Below are positions 1 through 38,425 of a DNA stretch of 64,000 bases, piece after piece. A model generated the notes under the pieces. The model made no database searches. It was given only the letters and a program-made list of their open reading frames with translations, and was not told where the DNA came from. The stretch is from assembly GCA_964016885.1 (NCBI GenBank), contig OZ024743.1:186620001-186684000 (forward strand), in the 5' to 3' direction. The position numbers were made by a program, and so were the translations under genes. Each line of letters starts with the position of its first letter. Position 1 is the first letter of the stretch. The DNA comes from Eledone cirrhosa. Its lineage: Eukaryota.

Positions 1-365
1 GTCAATTTGATTTGTCGGACTTAAGCCCACAGGATTCATTGACTTGTTTCTATTTTCCTCTCTTTACGTTGCATTACTACCATGTGTTTGTTTCCTTCCC
101 TCTGTTTTCCCACTGTCCCGATAACTTAATTGAGTTATCGCTCGCACTGATTTTAGGTATCTAGTCTTTAATGCGTCGAAATACCAATGATAATCAGCAG
201 ACTACTGATGAGGACATTTTATCTTTTGGTCTATTTTTATTCATATACAACACAGCATGCCATTCTTCATTTATATATATATATATATATATATATAAGT
301 TATTCCGGGTTGAATCGGAAGTAACCACAGTAAGTAAGGTACTCAATACATAGCAGAGTATATAT
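1..365. mobile_element. Probable retroelement terminus (possibly Penelope-like) carrying the hammerhead, abutting (TA)n
   Basis: CpG-containing structured sequence (hairpin CGATAACTT-aatt-GAGTTATCG 119-140) running into (TA)n at 272-297. Hammerheads are established features of Penelope-like terminal repeats. No coding homology is visible in the window. Confidence 0.3.
147..218 (+). ncRNA. Putative hammerhead ribozyme with non-circularly permuted strand order
   Basis: Core CTGATGA 205-211 and GAAA 178-181; cleavage triplet ATC 159-161. Stem III GGTAT 156-160 pairs with ATACC 181-185. Stem I TAGTCT 162-167 pairs with AGACTA 199-204. Stem II G212-C177, G213.U176, then CATT 215-218 with AATG 170-173. 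Confidence 0.7.
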
Positions 366-739
366 ATATACAGAATGAGAGAGAGAGAGAGAGTCTGTGT
401 GTGGTTATTTATGTGCATGCTTCTAACAGCACATTATGTGTTGGACTATTTATATGATAAAAGTTTTACTTGGAACAATTCAATTTTGATAGTACTCAAA
501 AATGAACGTTTCAATATACTAAACTTTATCTAAGTAAACTGTTTACAAATTTCAGGTTTAAAATGTTATTTGATTGTAATGAAATCTGGCAGTTTTTCCA
601 TTATTCTTTCTGTACATTAACATTAATAAGCTGCCATATTTCAAATGGTACAAAAATCACTTTATAGATGTTTATTCATGTGTGTATATGTGTCTATGTT
701 CACACTTGTATACACAAACACACACATACACAAGTATGT

Positions 740-824
740 ATGTTTGCGTATATATACATATATTGCTAAGTATGTATGTATTATATGTATGTATGTATAT
801 ATATGTATATTATGTATTCATGTA

Positions 825-916
<92 letters not shown>

Positions 917-965
917 TATATATATGTATATTATGTATATATATGTATATTATGCATTCATGTGC

Positions 966-1001
<36 letters not shown>

Positions 1002-1070
1002 GTATATGTGTACATATATGTATATATATATATGTATACACATACTAACACACACACTCATACATACACA
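740..1070. repeat. (TA)n / (TATG)n compound microsatellite
   Basis: Direct inspection; pure (TA)n at about 831-912. Confidence 0.95.
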
Positions 1071-1539
1071 TTTCTTTCTGTTGAGAAATGCAGGCTTAAA
1101 ATTCTCTTTCTGACTTAATAAAGATTTCTTTTAATACCAGTAAAACTGTAATGTAGTTTCTTTTTATTTTTTTGTAAGGCTTGTTTTGTTATAAAGAGAA
1201 ATATATTGATTTTTATGTTTCAGCTAAAACTTAAAGAAACGAACAGAAGTCTATGAAAATTGAGGTTGCAAAGTCACATCAACACTGTTCTTCAAAAGTA
1301 AAGATTATTCCTAGTTTACGCTCCAATTACTATGTTTTAGGCCTGTCAGATTTGCAATAAAGAAAAACAACAAATGGAAGGAAGTATGAAATTAAATGAA
1401 CACATGAAATACTATTAGGAAAGAAATGGCAGATAAATATTGAAATAGAAATGGGATATTTTATTATGGCCTAATTAATACCGATTTTTAATTTTGGCAC
1501 AAGGCCAGCAAATTTTGGGGAAGGGAAGTAAGTAGGCTA

Positions 1540-2008
1540 TCGTCAATTTGGATTTCATGCTAACCTTTACCTATGGTCATGGGTTTTGGGTAATGATCAA
1601 AAGCATACAATCACGAATACAAGCAGCCAAAATGGGATTCCTCCGAAGGGTCTTTCGAGTAATGTTACTCGATAGAGTAAATAGCTCGGAGATCAGAGAG
1701 AGTCACTCCAGGTAGAGCTGCAACTACTCCGAATTGAGAGATCACAGCTCTGATACCACAGGCATGTGACTAGAATGTGTCAGGAAAGAATCGCGAGACA
1801 GATTTTACAGGCAAAACCAACTGGCAAGAGTCCCAGGGGTAGACCCCAAGCAAGATGGTTGGATAACATCCATGATTTTGGCTCATCACGCTTAGGGATC
1901 CAGCAGGACCGGTTGGAGATGATTGCTTCTGACAGGACCCACTGGAAGGAGTGTTTGAGGACTCTGACCCCACGACCTCCTAAGGAATAAATGAGTGAAG
2001 AAGAAGGG
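1540..2008 (+). mobile_element. 5'-truncated RTE-clade LINE (Expander/Rex3-like) 3' fragment
   Basis: Decayed reading LTFTYGHGFWVM..IQSRIQAAKMGFLRRV ... RMCQERIARQILQAKPTGKSPRGRPQARWLDNI; ends in (GAA)n-like tail. Confidence 0.85.
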
Positions 2009-3291
2009 TAAAGTTGATTAAATGAATGAACTTCAATACTTGACAGATATCTTATTTTTTTTAATCCTAGAAGGATGAAAGGCAAAGTTACCCACGACAG
2101 GATTTGAATTCAGAATGTAAAGAGCCAAAAGAAATTCTACTAAGTATTTGTCCAACACTCTAATGACTCCACCAATCAGTGATCCTTCTTGTCTAATCAA
2201 TAATAGTGATTGATGTGTGTACATGTTGAAACCAATTTACTGCCAAAACTGTAATTCCCTGAGTGAGATTTTGTGTTGCTTTTGAATAACTATAATGAAA
2301 ACTAGCATAAATATTAAAACAGAAATATTTTATAAGTGAGCATTAAAATGTTGTGTATACTTCTATGAATTTAAATATGATGTTGAGACAAACTGGATGG
2401 AATCATAAAGTCAGTTCTTTGTAATGGATTTAAAGTCAATGACAGAAGACCAACAGTGGAAATGCAGAAAGAGAATGGCAATCATTTGTAAAGCAGCATT
2501 TTCACAAAACCTGTTATTCTACTGCATATAGGCAAATGAAACAAGGTACACTGATGTAAATGTCCTAATCAGAGATGAAGCTGTTAGTTATGAAATGGTT
2601 TAACCTTTTTGATACCAAACTGCATGAAACTGCTATTGTAAAACAAAACTATTTTAAAGTGTTTATATTTACCTAAAAGTAACCTTCCATCATAATTTTA
2701 TATAAGAAACCTTGTTAAACACCAATTAAAAATGAGAAAGTTAGTTATATTACTAAATCTCTCTAAATTCATGATTATTTTTCAAATTAATATGGCAACA
2801 AAAGAAGTAATCACCCAACCCTTACATTCAAATCTAAAATAACATTTGCCAAAAGTATTATTGGCAGTGGTAGTAGTAATAGTAGTAGTTGAACTCCAGC
2901 TCAGCTGACATAATCAAAAGCATTCCAGTCATAACAATTCATATCTGTTTTACAGAAACAGTGTATAATATAAATCTATTCTAATGTATCCTTCATTTTG
3001 TAAGATAGTAGGGTGTTGTTTAAGAGAGATTCAGCTGATATTTATTACAGGATCTGTAAATTTGTTGAGACTCTACCCAAATGCTGGAATTCTTTTTATA
3101 AAACATGTCACATTTAAATAAGCACTTCTAACTTTTGTCTAAAATTTATAGCTACCATTAATTACTATCATTATAAGAAAGTAAGGTTAATCAACTTTGT
3201 TATTCAAATTTAATTGATTTATTTTAGACAGCATAAAGTAAAAGTTTATATAATATATAAGATAATGAGAGGAAAAGAAAACTTTAGGAAA

Positions 3292-3636
3292 TCATTGGAG
3301 TAATGTTACGAGATAGAGCTCAGAGATCAGAGAATTGCTCAAGGTAGAGCTGCCACTTCTCCAAATTTAGAGACCACAGCTCTGATACTACAGGAATGGT
3401 GTTAGAATGTCTCAGGAAAGAATCGTTGGACAGATTTTATGAGCAAAACCAACTAGCAGGAGATTCCGAGGTAGACCCTGAGCAAGACAGTTGGATAACA
3501 ACTGTGAGCTTGGATAGTCATGCTAGGGTATCCAGCTGGATCATTTAAAAACAGTTGATTCTGACAGGACCCACTGGAAGGAGTGTTTGAGGAATCTGCT
3601 TCCATGACCCTCCCAGGAATATGTGGGCGAAGAAGA
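3292..3636 (+). mobile_element. Second decayed copy of the Expander-like RTE 3' end
   Basis: Colinear with 1655-2000 (gagatcagag...caggaaagaatcg...ctgacaggacccactggaaggagtgtttgagga). Confidence 0.85.
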
Positions 3637-6384: not shown

Positions 6385-7452
6385 GCTATATTATGCCTGT
6401 GTGCAAACTACATGGAAGCGAAACATGGGCACTGTGTGCCAAAGATCTACATAGATTGGAAAGAAATGAAGCCTGCATGCTCAGATGGATGTGTAACAGT
6501 AGTGTGCATAAATGGCGAAATGTAAATGAACTGAGAGTGAAACTGGACATAAGAGGGATCAAATGCTGTGTGCAGGTGAGAAGACTGGAATGGTATGGGC
6601 ATGTGATTTGCATGAAGTATGACAGCTGTATAAAAAGGTGCAGGGCACTCAAGGTTGTAGGGTGCCTTGGAAGAGGAAAACCTAGGAAGATATGGGATGA
6701 AATGATAAAGGCTGATCTGGCACAGCTGAGCCTCATGATGGAGATGACATAAAACTGAGAGCTCTGCTGCTACATTGTACAACAGGTCTGAGTCAACAAC
6801 CCAGTCCAGCCCACACTGTAAATATGGCTTGTGCTTAGGAAGGACATCTGGCAGTCATGAAATCTCATGAAATGTGAGCAACACAAGTCTCAGTGTGGCC
6901 AACCTGCCAGACCTCCCTTATAACATTCCCACTCAGCTCCCATAATATGAGTCCATTATGAACAGGGTCAGTAGGGCCAAATGGCCAGAGCCTCCTCATA
7001 ATAGGATCACCCAGTTCCACACTGTAAACCTAGTTGGTGTTAGGAATGACACTGAACAGCCAAAATGTAGCCCAGTATGAGCAAGGTATGGTGTGGCCAA
7101 TTTGTTAGACATGCCTCATAAGTGGCACCACCCAGTCTCACATTCTAAATGTGGTTGGTGTTTGTAAAACCCCAGCAAAAATGTGCATGGTCTGGTGCGG
7201 CCAGCTGGCATGACCCTCCCCATAATGGAAATGTGTGTTGCACACTGTAAATGTGGATGTTGTTAGAAAAGGCATCCTGCAGCTGTAAAATTCCTCAGCC
7301 AAAGCACAAGCCCCACTATGAGCAAGGTTGAACATGGCCAACTGGCCAGATCTACCTCATTACAGGTCCACCTAGCTCCTTAATACAAATCTGCTTATGA
7401 GCAAGGTAAGGCACAGCCAATTGGCCAGGCCCCTCTCATAACAGGACCACCT
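6385..7452 (+). mobile_element. 5'-truncated RTE 3' ORF fragment followed by a tandemly expanded 3' UTR
   Basis: ORF 6393-6752 LHGSETWAL..DLHRLERNEACMLRWMCN..IRGIKCCVQVRRLEWYGHV is close to the C-terminus of the intact ORF; repeated UTR modules at 6800-7452. Confidence 0.85.
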
Positions 7453-8186: not shown

Positions 8187-11100
8187 AGCATGCCATTTCC
8201 ACTGCTGCTGCTGCTACTACCTGCCTAACTAACTCTCTCCTCCTCTGGCGCATCCCAACACACCCTGCCATTACCCCACCACCACTGTCCTTCTAGCCCT
8301 CAATTTTCCCACCGTTAGGGATGGATGAGCTGGGAATACACGAGCAACTCTGAATCAATAGATGAAATATGAATCTGCGAGCTACCAAGCACCCACGTGA
8401 AGCGCCAACCCAGAGACCCTCCCCTACGAGTGTCGACAAATGCCCAAAACTCCGAGTTGGTACCATCAATGTAGGCTCAATGAAAGGAAGAGCAGGAGAA
8501 ATCGTAGAAATGCTAGAGCGAAAGGAAGTTGATGTATGCTGTGTGCAAGAGACTAGATGGAGAGGAGGGTCTGCTAGAGTCCTTGTAGGAAAAAGCCAGT
8601 GCTACAAATTTTTCTGGGTGGGAAATGACGATGGGATGGGTGGTGTAGGTATACTATTAGCTGACAAGTGGGTAGATAAAGTAATCTCAGTGTACAGGGT
8701 AAATGCAAGAATCATTAAACTCAGACTAGTCCTGAATAAGACAATTACCACAATAATATCAGCTTACGCACCCCAATCGGGGCTGCCAGACGAACTTAAG
8801 GATAGGTTTTACGAGTCCCTAATACACACTACTGCTCTAACAGACGACAAGGACTTCCTAATCATTGCAGGAGATTTTAACGGACACGTAGGTAAACACT
8901 GCGATGGCTTCAATAGAGTACATGGAGGCCATGGAGTTGGCACAAGGAATGAGGAAGGATTCAGACTTCTAGAATTCTGCGACGCCAATGACATGTCGAT
9001 ATGTAACACAAACTTTAAAAAACCCGACAACCACCTGATCACCTATAGATCAGGGGAGCACTCTAGTCAGTTAGATTTTATCCTCATCAGAGGACGTGAC
9101 AGATGGACGGTCGTAAACACAAAAGCCTTCCCTAGTGAGGAATGTACATCCCAACATAGCTTAGTTGTCAGCGACCTCACGGTCAGAACTAGACGAGCCC
9201 TGAAACAGAGGCCAACCTGGAGAAGAAAGATCTGGAAGCTGAAAGTCCCCTCAACCAGTAACAGATTTAAAGATATTTTACTCAACGCCTACGACAGTAA
9301 AGAAGAACAGATAGAGACATTTAACGTAGAAGAGAACTGGGAGTTCCTAAAAAATAACTTACTAGAGGCGACGGATGAGGTTTGTGGCTGGAGTAAGACC
9401 TCAAGCAGGAGGAGAGTGACTTGGTGGTGGAACAATAAGGTAGATGAAGCAGTCAAGGCCAAGAGACAGGCATGGAAAGAATGGAAGAACGGGGGGAGCA
9501 GGGTACATTACATAGAGACCAAGAGGGAAGCTAGGCGACAAGTATACTTAGCTAGGAGGGAAGCAGAGGATAGAAAATTCAAGCATGTTTTACAACGTGA
9601 GGACCAGAAACAGGAGGTATTCAAGATTGCGAGGCAGTGTGTCAGAGATAGTTGTGATGTCATTGGAGAGAAGTGTATCCGGAATGATAAAGGTGAGCTT
9701 GCCCTCACAAGTGCTGAGAAGAAAGATGCATGGAAGAGTCATTATGATAGATTACTAAATGAGGAGAATGCATGGGAAGAAGAGACCCTACCCCACGTAG
9801 ACCCTATAGAGGGACCAGCAGTACAAGTCAGCGGCAGCGTAGTAAGTAAGGCAATCAGAGATATGAAGATAGGGAAGGCAACCGGTCCATCGGGTATAGC
9901 TGCCGAGATGCTGAAGGCATCTGGGTCTGTAGGTCACACTATAACCACACGTATCGTTAACCAGGTAATACTAGAGGGGGCCATACCAAAAGATTGGTGC
10001 AGTAGCATCATTGTCAACTGCTACAAAGGTAAAGGCGATGCACTAGATAGAGGAAACTATAGAGGTATAAAGTTGATGGACCAGGTCATGAAAGTAACAG
10101 AAAGAGTTATAGCACAGCTGATTAGGGACCGGGTGAATATAGACGAGATGCAATTTGGGTTTGTTCCAGGGAAAGGCACCACTGATGCGCTCTTCCTTGT
10201 GAGGCAATTACAGGAAAAGTACCTAGCTAAAAGTAAGCCACTCTACTTGGCATTTGTCGACCTTGAGAAAGCCTTTGACAGAGTTCCACGTGCAGTAATC
10301 TGGTGGGCTCTTAGAAAACTAGGAGTAGATGAATGGCTTGTGAAAGCGGTACAAGCCATGTATAGGGGAGCAGTCAGCAAAGTTAGGATTGGCAATGAGT
10401 ATAGCGAGGAATTTAGCGTACAGGTTGGGGTCCACCAGGGCTCTGTTCTTAGCCCTCTCCTGTTCATCATAGTCCTGCAGGCAATAACGGAGGAGTTTAA
10501 GACCGGATGCCCATGGGAACTCCTGTATGCTGATGACCTCGCACTCATAGCTGAATCTATGGTAGAACTAGAGAATAAATTCCAAACCTGGAAGCAGGGA
10601 CTAGAGAGAAAGGGCCTCAAAGTCAACATGACAAAGACTAAGGTCCTTATAAGTAGACGAGAAAACAGAACCCAGATCCCCTCAGGGAAATGGCCTTGCT
10701 CAGTATGTAGGAAAGGTGTAGGTAGGAACTCCATTCTTTGCCCCAAATGCAAACAATGGGTACACAAGAGATGTAGCGGGATCTCAGGAAGCTTAATTAA
10801 GAATGTAGGATTCACATGCAGCAGCTGTGCTGAAACAGCAAGCAAACAGCCACAGGAAACAAGTACCACCAATCTCTGGGAGGGCCCTGTAGAAACAGTA
10901 GACAGCTTCTGCTACCTAGGTGACCGAATTAGCAACGGAGGTGGGTGCTCAGAAAGTACAATAACTAGGGTAAGAACGGGATGGAAGAAGTTTAGGGAAC
11001 TACTACCACTGCTAGCTGCAAAAGGCTTCTCCCTCAGAATGAAAGGCAGACTGTATGATGCGTGTATCCGAACAGCGATGTTGCATGGTAGTGAGACCTG

Positions 11101-11779
11101 GGCGCTGAAGGTGGAAGACTTACGTAGATTAGAGAGAAACGAAGCCTGCATGCTCCGATGGATGTGTAACAGTAATATACGTGAACGACAAAGCATAAAT
11201 GAATTGAGAGAGAGACTGAGCATAAGAGGAATCAAATGCTGCGTGCAGGAGAGGCGGTTACGCTGGTATGGACATGTGATGCGTATGAAGGATGACAGCT
11301 GCATAAAAAGGTGCAGAGCACTAGAAGTTGATGGAAACCGCGGAGTGGGGAGACCCAAGATGACTTGGGATGAGATGATAAAAGCCGACCTTACCCAACT
11401 ACACCTCTCAAAGTCAATGACACACGACCGTGACTTCTGGCGTCACGCAGTAATACAGGGTACCCGACCTCCCATGGGTACATGCTGAAGCATATAAACA
11501 ATATGCCCCCCCCCCCCCACCGCAAGGTGGTCGTGGAGGTGCCACGGCAAAAAAGCACCCAGCCCACACTGTAAAGTGGACGTGTAGGCGCCACGAAAAA
11601 GCACCCAGCACTCACTGTAAATGAGGTTGGTGTTAGGAAGGGCATCCAGCTGTAGAAATCAAGCCAGATCAGTTCCTGTATGAGCAAGGCATGGTCAGCC
11701 GACCAGACACTGCCCACAACAGGACAACCCGTCTAACCCATGCTAGCGTGGAAGAACGGACGTAAAACGGTGATGATGA
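8187..11779 (+). mobile_element. Apparently full-length RTE-clade non-LTR retrotransposon
   Basis: Single uninterrupted APE-RT ORF, short 5' leader after a (CA)n tract, about 290-nt 3' UTR ending ggacgtaaaacggtgatgatga. Flanked by CA-rich sequence; no TSD resolved and the 5' boundary is approximate. Confidence 0.9.
8369..11488 (+). CDS. RTE LINE polyprotein: AP-like endonuclease + reverse transcriptase with inserted PHD finger (1039 aa)
   Basis: APE motifs TINVG, VQETRW, SAYAP, AGDFNGH, QLDF. RT motifs KGDALDRGNYRGIKL, QFGF, FVDLEKAFDRV, GVHQGSVLSPLLF, LYADD, FCYLG. RTE C-terminus LHGSETW...RRLRWYGHVMR...GRPKMTW. Confidence 0.97.
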   Translation: MNLRATKHPREAPTQRPSPTSVDKCPKLRVGTINVGSMKGRAGEIVEMLERKEVDVCCVQETRWRGGSARVLVGKSQCYKFFWVGNDDGMGGVGILLADKWVDKVISVYRVNARIIKLRLVLNKTITTIISAYAPQSGLPDELKDRFYESLIHTTALTDDKDFLIIAGDFNGHVGKHCDGFNRVHGGHGVGTRNEEGFRLLEFCDANDMSICNTNFKKPDNHLITYRSGEHSSQLDFILIRGRDRWTVVNTKAFPSEECTSQHSLVVSDLTVRTRRALKQRPTWRRKIWKLKVPSTSNRFKDILLNAYDSKEEQIETFNVEENWEFLKNNLLEATDEVCGWSKTSSRRRVTWWWNNKVDEAVKAKRQAWKEWKNGGSRVHYIETKREARRQVYLARREAEDRKFKHVLQREDQKQEVFKIARQCVRDSCDVIGEKCIRNDKGELALTSAEKKDAWKSHYDRLLNEENAWEEETLPHVDPIEGPAVQVSGSVVSKAIRDMKIGKATGPSGIAAEMLKASGSVGHTITTRIVNQVILEGAIPKDWCSSIIVNCYKGKGDALDRGNYRGIKLMDQVMKVTERVIAQLIRDRVNIDEMQFGFVPGKGTTDALFLVRQLQEKYLAKSKPLYLAFVDLEKAFDRVPRAVIWWALRKLGVDEWLVKAVQAMYRGAVSKVRIGNEYSEEFSVQVGVHQGSVLSPLLFIIVLQAITEEFKTGCPWELLYADDLALIAESMVELENKFQTWKQGLERKGLKVNMTKTKVLISRRENRTQIPSGKWPCSVCRKGVGRNSILCPKCKQWVHKRCSGISGSLIKNVGFTCSSCAETASKQPQETSTTNLWEGPVETVDSFCYLGDRISNGGGCSESTITRVRTGWKKFRELLPLLAAKGFSLRMKGRLYDACIRTAMLHGSETWALKVEDLRRLERNEACMLRWMCNSNIRERQSINELRERLSIRGIKCCVQERRLRWYGHVMRMKDDSCIKRCRALEVDGNRGVGRPKMTWDEMIKADLTQLHLSKSMTHDRDFWRHAVIQGTRPPMGTC

Positions 11780-24982: not shown

Positions 24983-25550
24983 GGGCGGTGGATTGGCAGT
25001 ATCGGTAGAGGGTCGGACGCCATACTTTCCAGCATAGTTACGTCCCTTTACGATCTGAGTTCAAATCTCGCCGAGGTTGACTTTGCCTTTCATCCTTACG
25101 GGGTCGATAAAATAAAGTACCAGTAATGCACTGGGTAATTGCTGGCCTTGTGCCTAAAGTAGAAACAATTATTGGCAGTATCAGTAGAGGGTCGGACACA
25201 ATGCTTTCATGCATAGAGTTACGGCCCTTGCCATTCTGAATTCAAATCCCGCCAAGTTTAACTTTGCCTTTCCCCCTTACGGGGTTGATAAAATAATGTA
25301 CCAGTAATGCACTGGGGTAATAGCTGGCCTTGTGCTAAAAGTAGAAACAATTATTCACTCAGTGGGCGGTAGATTGGCAGTATTGGTAGAGGGTCAGACA
25401 CCATGCTTTGTTGCATAGAGTTATGGCCCTTGCCATTCTGAATTCAAATCCTGCCGAGGTTAACTTTGCCTTTCATCCTTATGGGGTTGATAAAATAAAG
25501 TACCAGTAATGCACTGGGTAATTACTGGCCTTGTGCCAAAAGTAGAAACA
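24983..25550 (+). mobile_element. Three head-to-tail tRNA-SINE copies
   Basis: Units at about 24983-25167, 25171-25349 and 25364-25550. TSDs ATTATTGGCAGTA (24970, 25168) and ATTATTCACTCAGT (25350, 25551). Confidence 0.92.
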
Positions 25551-26486
25551 ATTATTCACTCAGTAATTCCTGGAGAAAGAAGAAGAGAGACAGTTTGTCT
25601 TTAGCACTAAATCAGAAGATGGACAGAAACATCAGTACAATACGCTTTCCTTTACCTTTCCTCTTTTGCTTGGCTGTAAAATTATAACATGAGTTGAATC
25701 AAAGGATTTACAAGATAATTGATCATAATTAGTAAGTCTATAGTGAAATGATTTAAGAGTTTGAACTAATAGATTCCCAATCACCTTAGATTAATTCAAA
25801 TACACTGCATGTAGTATAAATATGAGATTTTCTTTCCATCTTCTGACACTGGTTGCATGGCTTTACAAATTTATATATTTGTATATATTTCTAATGTGTG
25901 CATGTATTTTATATATATGTATGTATAACCATGTATGTGTACTTGTATGTGACCATGTGTGTATGGGTGTTTGTGCATTTGTGTGAGTGTGTGTGTGTCT
26001 GTGTGCATGTGTGTGTGTGAATGCATCTGTGCATATTTCTTTATGTTACTGAAGACAGGAAAGCATCATCTATAAGTGAAGATGTCACCAAATACAAGCA
26101 AAGTATTTATATAATGACTGAACGAAATTATTCAAGGGTGTCATTTGCTTAAACAATAATAATCAAATTAGAGCCATCACACTTAATGAAGTGAAGAAAA
26201 AAAAAAACTAATTAATTAATAATACTTATTCAGTGAAAAGAGAAAACATTAGGTTAATGACTAATAATAATTTAATCTAATTTTGGCAATTATGGCCAAC
26301 AATTTCAGACATATTTCAGTATTATTAGACCACCTCAATAAAACACAGACTTTTCCTTACTTGCCAGATTAGGGATAAGGGAATACTGATGTACAATAAC
26401 AAACAAGAATACACATTAAACATTATCATGATGACTGAAGGATTATTATCTATGCCTGCCTGTATACATTGTATGTATGTATAGAC

Positions 26487-30112: not shown

Positions 30113-30498
30113 CATCTGTACGGGGTTGATAAAATAAAGCACAAATAATGCACTGAGGTAATTGCTGGCCTTATGCCAAAATTAGAAACATTACGGGGTT
30201 GATAAAATAAAGCACCAGTAATGTACTGGGGTAATTGCTGGCCTTGTGCCAAAAGTAGAATTATTATTATTATTATTATTAGTGACTTCAAAATGGTTGA
30301 CTAAACAAACACATCTTCCTCCCATAAGAAATTGTTTTCCTGTTTCTTTCTCATTCTAGTTTCATTTATCTTTCTATTTCTTTTTTCTATCTCTCATACT
30401 ATCTGCTTCAGGAGAAATCACATGTGAAATGTTAAGATTCCTTTTCTACTATATTAAGTGTTAAACTAATAATATATATCATTATTGTACTGTATCAT

Positions 30499-37599: not shown

Positions 37600-38425
37600 G
37601 CCACATCAACCTTTGTGTAGGTTAACAAATAAGGGACAAGATTGCATATCCTGAGACCCCAAAGGGGTTCAGAACAAAGCAAATCTTGACAATTGGAACC
37701 TGGAACATGACAACCCTTACAGATAAGGAGCAGGAACGGAGGAGACTAGATGCTAGCAGCTGGATATAGTTTGGGTTTCCTCAACAAAGTTCTGTAGATT
37801 TGAATGGAGAATGGAAACTCTACTATTCAGGTGTGGTACCAGAAATGACTAGACACGTGGGAGTGGGGATACTCACAAGCTCCCTGGCTGTCAGAATGTG
37901 TTATGGACTGGATACCATTAGGAGAGAGGATTTGGTTCTTGAAGCTTAGGCTGGAAAATAGGTCTCTGTTGGTGGTGCAATTTTATGCACCAAACAAGGA
38001 GTTCGAAAACAGATCCTTCCTTGATGAAGTCACTGCAGTATTAGATGAAATGGGGTTCCTCTGAAGGGTCTTTGGAGTAGTGTTACTTGATAGAGTGTGT
38101 AGCTCGGAGATCAGAGTCACTCTAGGTAGAGGCACTACTTTGACTTGAGAGATCACAGCTCTGATACTATGGGCATGTGGTTAGAATGTCCCAGGAAAGA
38201 ATCGCTGGACAGATTTTACAGGCAAAACCAATCAGCAGGAGACCCAGGGAAAACCCCGAGCAAGATGGTTGGACAAAATCTATGAGCTTAGTTGGTATCA
38301 CTTGGGGATCCAGCCAGATTCGTTGGAGACAGTTTCTTCTGACAGGACCAGCTAGAAGGAGTGTTTGAGGATTCTACCCCCATGACCCTCTCAGGAATAA
38401 GTGGATGAAGAAAAAGAAGAGAGAA
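37600..38425 (+). mobile_element. Expander-like RTE, bipartite (5' EN part fused to 3' end)
   Basis: LTIGTWNMTTLTDKEQE...GVGIL...LLVVQFYAPN (EN) joined at about 38050 to the 3' segment matching 1632-2000. Confidence 0.8.

Follow-up and report, generated by a model that had tools for sequence, protein, structure and literature searches.

The 64-kb stretch of the 3.0-Gb Eledone cirrhosa genome analysed here (contig OZ024743.1, 186,620,001-186,684,000; henceforth the window) carries near its start a set of hammerhead-like sequence blocks in a non-circular strand order, which raises the question of whether they form a real ribozyme motif, to what kind of element they belong, and what they might do there.

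A hammerhead core in S-G-C order

Every conserved hammerhead nucleotide is present within 156-212, as can be read from the letters. Block S (156-167; forward strand, as are all element features below) holds the 5' strand of stem III (156-160), C17 at 161, 3' of which the cut is predicted, and the 5' strand of stem I (162-167). The next stretch (168-185) comprises a 4-nt link (168-171), the 3' strand of a predicted helix P3 (172-175), N11.1 (177), block G with GAAA (178-181) and the 3' strand of stem III (181-185). Block C (199-216) comprises the 3' strand of stem I (199-204), CUGAUGA (205-211, with G5 at 207), N10.1 (212) and the 3' strand of a predicted helix P1 (213-216). Stem III has 5 bp (156-160/181-185, including U16.1-A15.1), stem I has 6 bp (162-167/199-204), and stem II opens with G212-C177 in this copy. 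The letters, coordinates and stem I and III pairings of the original prediction were all found at their positions, and the non-circular order it proposed (A-C-B, i.e. cleavage site, then GAAA, then CUGAUGA, or S-G-C) is read directly from the window. Such permutations are indeed rarely reported, but the order had already been named (type SGC) and tested by Eckert et al. in 2023, with cleavage shown for five RNAs (PMC10085705).

Relaxed descriptors in this strand order match this site alone within the 64 kb and find nothing in 24 Mb of order-3 Markov sequence modelled on the window, which rules out chance, while an exact two-block pattern has 159 genome matches versus 1 for its reversed control. 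Standard searches miss the motif, as had been foreseen: Rfam gives no hammerhead match at E<=10 in positions 1-3000 of the window, nor at gathering score in five loci. The published SGC descriptors (RNAMotif, re-coded here) miss it too because the second extra stem II pair fails, which may explain why the genome copies went unreported.

The core letters CUGANGA, GAAA and NUH are kept by homologous copies across 11 subfamilies, with C, A or U at H17. Stems I and III, with U16.1-A15.1, flank the core and are 98-100% paired with double changes in both; stem II opens with the 10.1-11.1 pair, which P3 continues instead of a plain helix. The linker from stem I to stem II is short (2-4 nt), as in type SGC, but the type SGC helix between stems I and II, whose second strand lies 3' of stem II, is replaced by a helix (P0) with an upstream partner. 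From these sequence features, the window motif is a real, strongly conserved hammerhead motif in SGC order and a predicted ribozyme.

A predicted extended fold with a four-way junction

Comparison of copies indicates that, past its first pair, stem II draws on upstream sequence, which means that the motif spans 114-216 rather than 147-218 as first proposed. The pairing and double changes across subfamilies imply a four-way junction made up of three helices (P1, P2 and P3) and the one core pair, and it is this fold that is predicted here. P1, in which the 5' strand at 114-118 pairs with 213-216, would close the fold as a whole (98.5% paired across subfamilies B-H, two of four pairs double-changed). 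The P2 hairpin (119-140; 97.8% paired, five of seven pairs double-changed) is the predicted junction arm, and also appears in the minimum free energy (MFE) fold of the window copy. The predicted 5' strand of P3 (143-146) pairs with 172-175 and substitutes for the distal 5' strand of stem II; P3 is 92.9% paired with two of five pairs double-changed in 17 copies of subfamilies B-H, and 87.5% paired in a 32-copy set. P0 joins 147-152 to 192-197, the latter ending one base 5' of stem I, with 96.4% pairing in the 32-copy set and five of six pairs double-changed in both sets.

Over 32 copies from nine subfamilies (up to 5 per subfamily, chosen from 129 distinct copies), the 35-pair model is 94.4% paired with 17 pairs double-changed, a level reached by none of 500 shuffles, while slid controls are 24-44% paired. 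In the 17-copy set, which leaves out subfamilies A and J, and in which P2 went uncounted (A and P2 owing to register shifts), a 27-pair set is 96.5% paired with double changes in all six helices tested; since the subfamilies share ancestry, covarying cells are not independent, and independent changes are fewer than these counts. Three of the six stem I pairs are double-changed. Stem III, which was part of the search pattern, is invariant in the 32-copy set, and two of its five pairs are double-changed in the 17-copy set once the independently found subfamily H is added. The pair 177/212 occurs among the 32 copies as C-G (8), U-G (8), U-A (7) and A-U (6), and is unpaired in 3. The compensatory changes sought in copies are therefore found for stems I and III and the 10.1-11.1 pair, but not for the rest of stem II, whose conserved part is one pair, non-canonical in most subfamilies. 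Subfamily J was left out of the pair counts (MAFFT mis-registered it) and parsed by anchors instead; it keeps all helices with other letters. Stem I is broken in the subfamily H copy of that anchor-parsed set. Among copies passing the core filter, 203 of 251 have the core and stems I and III intact. In subfamily A, the register of P1 is shifted by one base and U142-U176 is unpaired.

Two other pairings were considered and rejected: a helix 189-193/219-223, as in the published SGC, is not kept across subfamilies and is replaced by P0, and a register with G212 as an extra base (213-215/175-177) fits subfamily A only.

P0 would have to bridge the far ends of stems III and I via 3- and 6-nt links, and a similar geometric puzzle has been noted for type SGC (PMC10085705). 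The complementarity of 147-152 and 192-197 had been taken for a possible switch. The pairing stands and covaries, but P0 is better read as belonging to the active fold than as an off-switch, because it covaries, shares no base with stems I-III and occupies the place of the stem I-II helix. Judging from the predicted fold, P3 likely stacks as stem II, with P0 as the stem I-II helix. When the SGC strand path is drawn as a circle, the RNA appears opened inside the 5' strand of stem II, which is unbroken in the three-block scheme.

The host element and its spread

Extension upstream showed that the motif lies in a copy that starts 52 bp before the window, of which positions 1-271 are the 3' part: a 5'-truncated copy, with one ribozyme, of a 532-bp tandem, non-coding, pyrimidine-rich element (subfamily A1). 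It consists of unit positions 320-532 followed by 1-130, has a 12-bp deletion in its tail, and is 91-94% identical to copies at another locus. Its end region (236-271) includes the first preferred 3' end (about 243-246) and an optional 45-nt tail with an AC-rich motif common to subfamilies, and directly adjoins a (TA)13 target microsatellite (272-297). The placement at a mobile-family terminus beside (TA)n had been correctly recognised: across 50 insertion sites (from 60 loci), 44 of 52 3' ends lie at 85 or 125-132 nt past the predicted cut and are followed by (TA)n. These two fixed ends, 45 nt apart, recur in subfamilies B/D and E (one in C), and the AC-rich motif stands just before the second. 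They are likely the start sites of reverse transcription, and the two ends match the tail signature that was traced, in the accessible text of PMC11167929, to two internal reverse transcriptase (RT) start sites in an AC-rich stem loop.

Across the family, units of 515-640 bp are arranged head to tail, are about 68% pyrimidine, and match no Penelope protein; truncation at the 5' end varies from copy to copy, and opposite-strand pieces occur at 8 of the 50 insertion sites. Truncation, partial tandems, inverted 5' pieces, the optional tail and the microsatellite target are all features of Penelope-like elements (truncation, tandems, inverted pieces and targets are listed in section 6 of PMC8557442), here in non-autonomous form. 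The units being non-coding, the open reading frame (ORF) with an N-terminal GIY-YIG before the RT that defines Naiads is absent, and no such ORF signature was found in the genomic loci examined. The uncharacterised mobile family of the original prediction is accordingly mobile, but can now be read, from its sequence features, as a non-autonomous Penelope-type tandem element.

No autonomous element with this fold was found among about 70 of the 150 listed GIY-YIG matches (10,596 candidates), and the sequence flanking about 300 ribozyme loci showed no autonomous partner. The Penelope ORFs that do occur close to ribozyme copies were rejected as partners, as they lie on either strand at varying distances and belong to other families; where such an arrangement recurred (L228/L229), it reflects a segmental duplication with 98% identity across 8.5 kb.

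Searched with an exact 29-place pattern drawn from blocks S and G, the genome gives 8,458 matches (control 0). Of 58 matches sampled, 50 have CUGANGA 12-30 nt downstream and 49 of these also stem I, the core being mutated or cut off in the other 8. Subfamilies H and J fall outside this pattern, with 950 and 843 first-look candidates, which are not copy numbers. Diverged relatives were met by chance in loci chosen for other reasons. The element family thus has multiple thousands of copies, with the ribozyme motif itself in thousands, and comprises eleven subfamilies, four of which were compared (units of 528-637 bp, 65-75% alike). Matches of the S-G pattern in metagenomic (74 loci) and viral (7 loci) contigs were discarded as chance, none having CUGANGA within 45 nt.

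Neighbouring and related sequences

Just upstream of the window (L001, 960-1230), a different Penelope-type element has left a decayed end, which includes a minimal type I-like core. Inside the window, an unbroken 1,040-aa LINE-type ORF on the forward strand (8366-11488) encodes an endonuclease, RVT_1 and a PHD finger after the RT, and the element is probably young. Three copies of a 300-bp repeat (1707-2006, 3292-3636 and 38048-38416) are 79-84% alike to a fourth upstream in L001, and their sequence resembles a LINE 3' end. A short repeat, which we take to be an octopus SINE, occurs in tandem copies of 181-202 bp and 73 bp at 24992-25564 and 30119-30260.

Elsewhere in the genome, a different Penelope-type family (L312, about 7250-7310, reverse strand; C1:34.44 Mb) carries a minimal type I hammerhead. 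Its core and stem II 5' strand share 13 identical nt with the end of block C of subfamilies B and D, and its stem II equals their P1. This likeness may possibly mark a route from type I to the four-way form, or be due to chance. L312 and L313 (C1:34.43 and 35.46 Mb) share a segmental duplication of 8.5 kb with 98% identity. The genome also has Penelope-type families with C-terminal GIY-YIG, at least six of which were met (L091, L092, L094, L097, L101 and L108), some with ORFs of 900-1,100 aa, and several of these lack a recognisable hammerhead core in the 2 kb 3' of the ORF.

Relation to type SGC, retrozymes and Penelope-like elements

According to the accessible text of PMC10085705, the first non-circular permutations, demonstrated in 2023, came from RNAs of unknown hosts, with none reported in genomes of known organisms; SGC was found in metatranscriptomes only, CSG rests on two metagenomic sequences, and the helix joining stems I and II is needed for cleavage (SGC-3). 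With the RNAs described there (HRIMA-1 and SGC variants), the Eledone motif shares the S-G-C order, the short link from stem I to stem II, a helix beside stem I joining it to stem II and, in subfamily J, the extra U before G10.1 of one published descriptor. It differs in being an animal genomic repeat, in a stem II whose 5' strand is interrupted after 10.1 and supplied from there on by upstream sequence via a four-way junction, in the upstream rather than 3' partner of the stem I-II helix, and in giving no match to the published descriptor. A further paper merely cites type SGC in its accessible text (PMC13725137). Full-text searches (subscription papers lying outside them) listed no paper that places non-circular hammerheads in animal genomes, retrozymes or Naiads. 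The Eledone motif, whose activity is predicted, is a structural variant not described before, in a setting that is likewise new and very abundant.

With the animal non-LTR retrozymes, as described in the accessible parts of PMC7229834 and of a preprint (bioRxiv 10.64898/2026.07.22.740005), the family shares non-coding head-to-tail units with one hammerhead each, many copies and a proposed Penelope origin. However, those retrozymes are defined and searched by type I hammerheads (the 2026 preprint, as far as its accessible text goes, by type I alone), whereas the present motif is SGC; their units are mostly 150-450 bp (PMC7229834) or 51-972 bp (preprint), and circular RNA has been shown for them, while the Eledone family is known from genomic DNA. 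Penelope-like elements (accessible text of PMC4209133 and PMC11167929) have in common with the family the 5' truncation, partial tandems, inverted 5' pieces, optional tail, AT-rich targets, a hammerhead near the 3' end and an AC-rich motif at the second end; here, however, an RT/GIY-YIG ORF is lacking and SGC takes the place of the minimal type I hammerheads of PMC4209133.

Naiad elements

Craig et al. (2021) describe Naiads as lacking canonical hammerheads, with eight 'half cores' whose second half may lie on either side (PMC8557442, accessible text). For comparison, about 300 nt of 44 published record ends were read by eye, without computation. Read in this way, the 3' ends of Naiad_Obim and Naiad_Ovul (Octopus) show S-G-C order, stems I and III and P0-P3 in other letters, with a P2 loop resembling subfamilies C, E and F, and in Naiad_Esco S-G-C order is accompanied by stems I and III, P0 and P1. 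By the same reading, six nematode ends (Naiad-1, -2 and -3_Nbra, Hcon, Hpol and Asuum) are C-S-G with stems I-III complete: 2-5 nt lead from stem I to stem II, and the position of P0 is taken by a helix of 9-17 bp. Non-circular motifs were therefore seen by eye in 9 of the 44 ends and in four of the eight half cores (Parc, Smim, Dst-3 and Dst-4 gave no clear parse); no such motif was seen in the roughly 300 nt of the remaining ends.

Naiads have the same (TA)n target and tail as the Eledone family, but in the published records they encode an endonuclease-RT, and their post-core sequence is G/U-rich, unlike the tail of the Eledone family. Two short Naiad_Obim motifs have no match in the Eledone genome, so these Naiads are not the direct partner of the family; conversely, five motifs of the family are absent from the accessible Naiad supplement (PMC8557442).

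It seems reasonably probable, from these by-eye readings, that non-circular hammerheads, far from being a rarity of environmental circular RNAs, serve the Naiad-type Penelope elements of animals, together with their non-autonomous offspring, as a regular ribozyme, with CSG in nematodes and the stem II-opened four-way-junction form in cephalopods. This would explain the 'missing' Naiad hammerheads, would place well over 8,000 such motifs in one genome, and would constitute a natural rewiring series (CSG, SGC, split stem II).

Other ends in the accessible supplement of PMC8557442 look different. The end of the record before Naiad-2_Movir resembles a twister ribozyme by eye, and some Naiads may use another self-cleaving class. 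Bivalve and hemichordate ends carry a conserved GC-rich 3' motif without a hammerhead core, and several of the arthropod ends (Darwinula, spiders) place a run of C ahead of a CUGANGA-like core, some with GAAA upstream.

Likely processing of the element RNA and competing readings

The SGC motif in this truncated Penelope-type copy is likely a self-cleaving processing site of the element RNA, as far as sequence comparison can tell. A transcript through a unit would fold such that P1, P2, P3 and the 177-212 pair form the four-way junction, with P3 stacking on 177-212 as stem II and P0 tying stem I to stem II, upon which the RNA would be cut 3' of C161. Two cuts in a tandem array would free a monomer of 515-640 nt, the ends of which would be held together by about 19 base pairs (P1, P3, P0 and stem III), so that circularisation would be favoured. 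A Penelope-like RT-endonuclease would then act in trans on the monomer, with reverse transcription starting 85 or 130 nt past the cut site and the copy being inserted into (TA)n. The window copy, having one ribozyme, could be cut once, without release of a monomer. Monomers of type I retrozymes are circularised mainly by RtcB, with 1-3% self-ligation (PMC7229834, accessible text); since 19 pairs would hold the two products together, one may guess that self-ligation is stronger here.

Insertion ends lend modest support to cutting, with a mild excess of 5' ends at the upstream cut site. Among 128 copies selected solely by their ribozyme, 18 extend to this site, of which 8 stop within 15 nt and 10 run through, and the rate of 5' ends there is 0.014 per nt versus 0.003-0.009 elsewhere (p ranges from 0.0005 to 0.05 with the choice of baseline). 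It thus seems that cut and uncut templates are both used. The same 10 read-through copies would fit a real fold that rarely cuts itself, acting instead in protein binding, RT positioning or as a protein-assisted ribozyme, with uncut tandem RNA as the template, as would the weak stem II and the anole Poseidon hammerhead, whose cleavage depends on protein and which in vitro insertion does not require (PMC11167929, accessible text). The MFE fold of the window copy is moreover a different, inactive one that competes with the predicted active fold and is no more stable than shuffles (z +1.1, -1.2 and +0.1). Nevertheless, 11 subfamilies with varying helices all retain the catalytic-core letters and NUH, and 5' ends do mildly pile up at the cut site, which makes rare self-cutting unlikely. 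Units folded as circles give no uniform signal (z +0.2, -4.2, -0.3 and -3.6; 20 shuffles). In A1, the 3' flank can fold back on block C in the MFE fold (199-232), a possible off-state that is not clearly kept in other subfamilies.

The form of the active fold in the window's own subfamily is a second matter. The original prediction extended stem II over 170-177/212-218 and joined stems I and II by a 2-nt linker. If this simple SGC fold were the active form in subfamily A, P1 and P3 would be an alternative or a switch. Subfamily A can indeed form six such pairs, a crude nested-layer estimate puts the two folds about 2 kcal/mol apart, and alignment columns 67/114 and 68/113 can pair too in several subfamilies. 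Across the 32 copies, however, the extended stem II is 45% paired, with only the first pair (177/212) conserved, compared to 93-98% for P1 and P3, both of which persist in subfamilies H and J even though the letters differ there. The extended stem II, and hence the 2-nt linker, holds in the window's own subfamily only, and the simple fold appears distinctly improbable as the active form even there.

Cleavage through the four-way fold of a single RNA is also preferred over a dimer, in which the blocks would act between two molecules or tandem units. Minimal Penelope-like hammerheads are thought to work as dimers (PMC4209133, accessible text), arrays exist here, and dimerisation would ease the geometry of P0. 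Stem III is non-palindromic, however, all partner strands lie within 103-117 nt, and the SGC RNAs tested cleave as single constructs (PMC10085705), so that a dimer is very doubtful. A chance match in a repeat, which has nothing in its favour beyond AT-rich short helices and is refuted by the descriptor and pattern controls and the covariation, can be dismissed.

Implications

If retroelements use a non-standard order, surveys of retrozymes by types I, II and III undercount them. The split stem II means that a hammerhead 'block' itself can be split, and since the fold would keep its cleavage products paired, the motif is a candidate for self-circularisation and for ribozyme engineering. A testable reading is offered for the unexplained Naiad half cores. 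Non-circular hammerheads are given a host and a likely job, i.e. the processing of Penelope-type retroelement RNA in animals.
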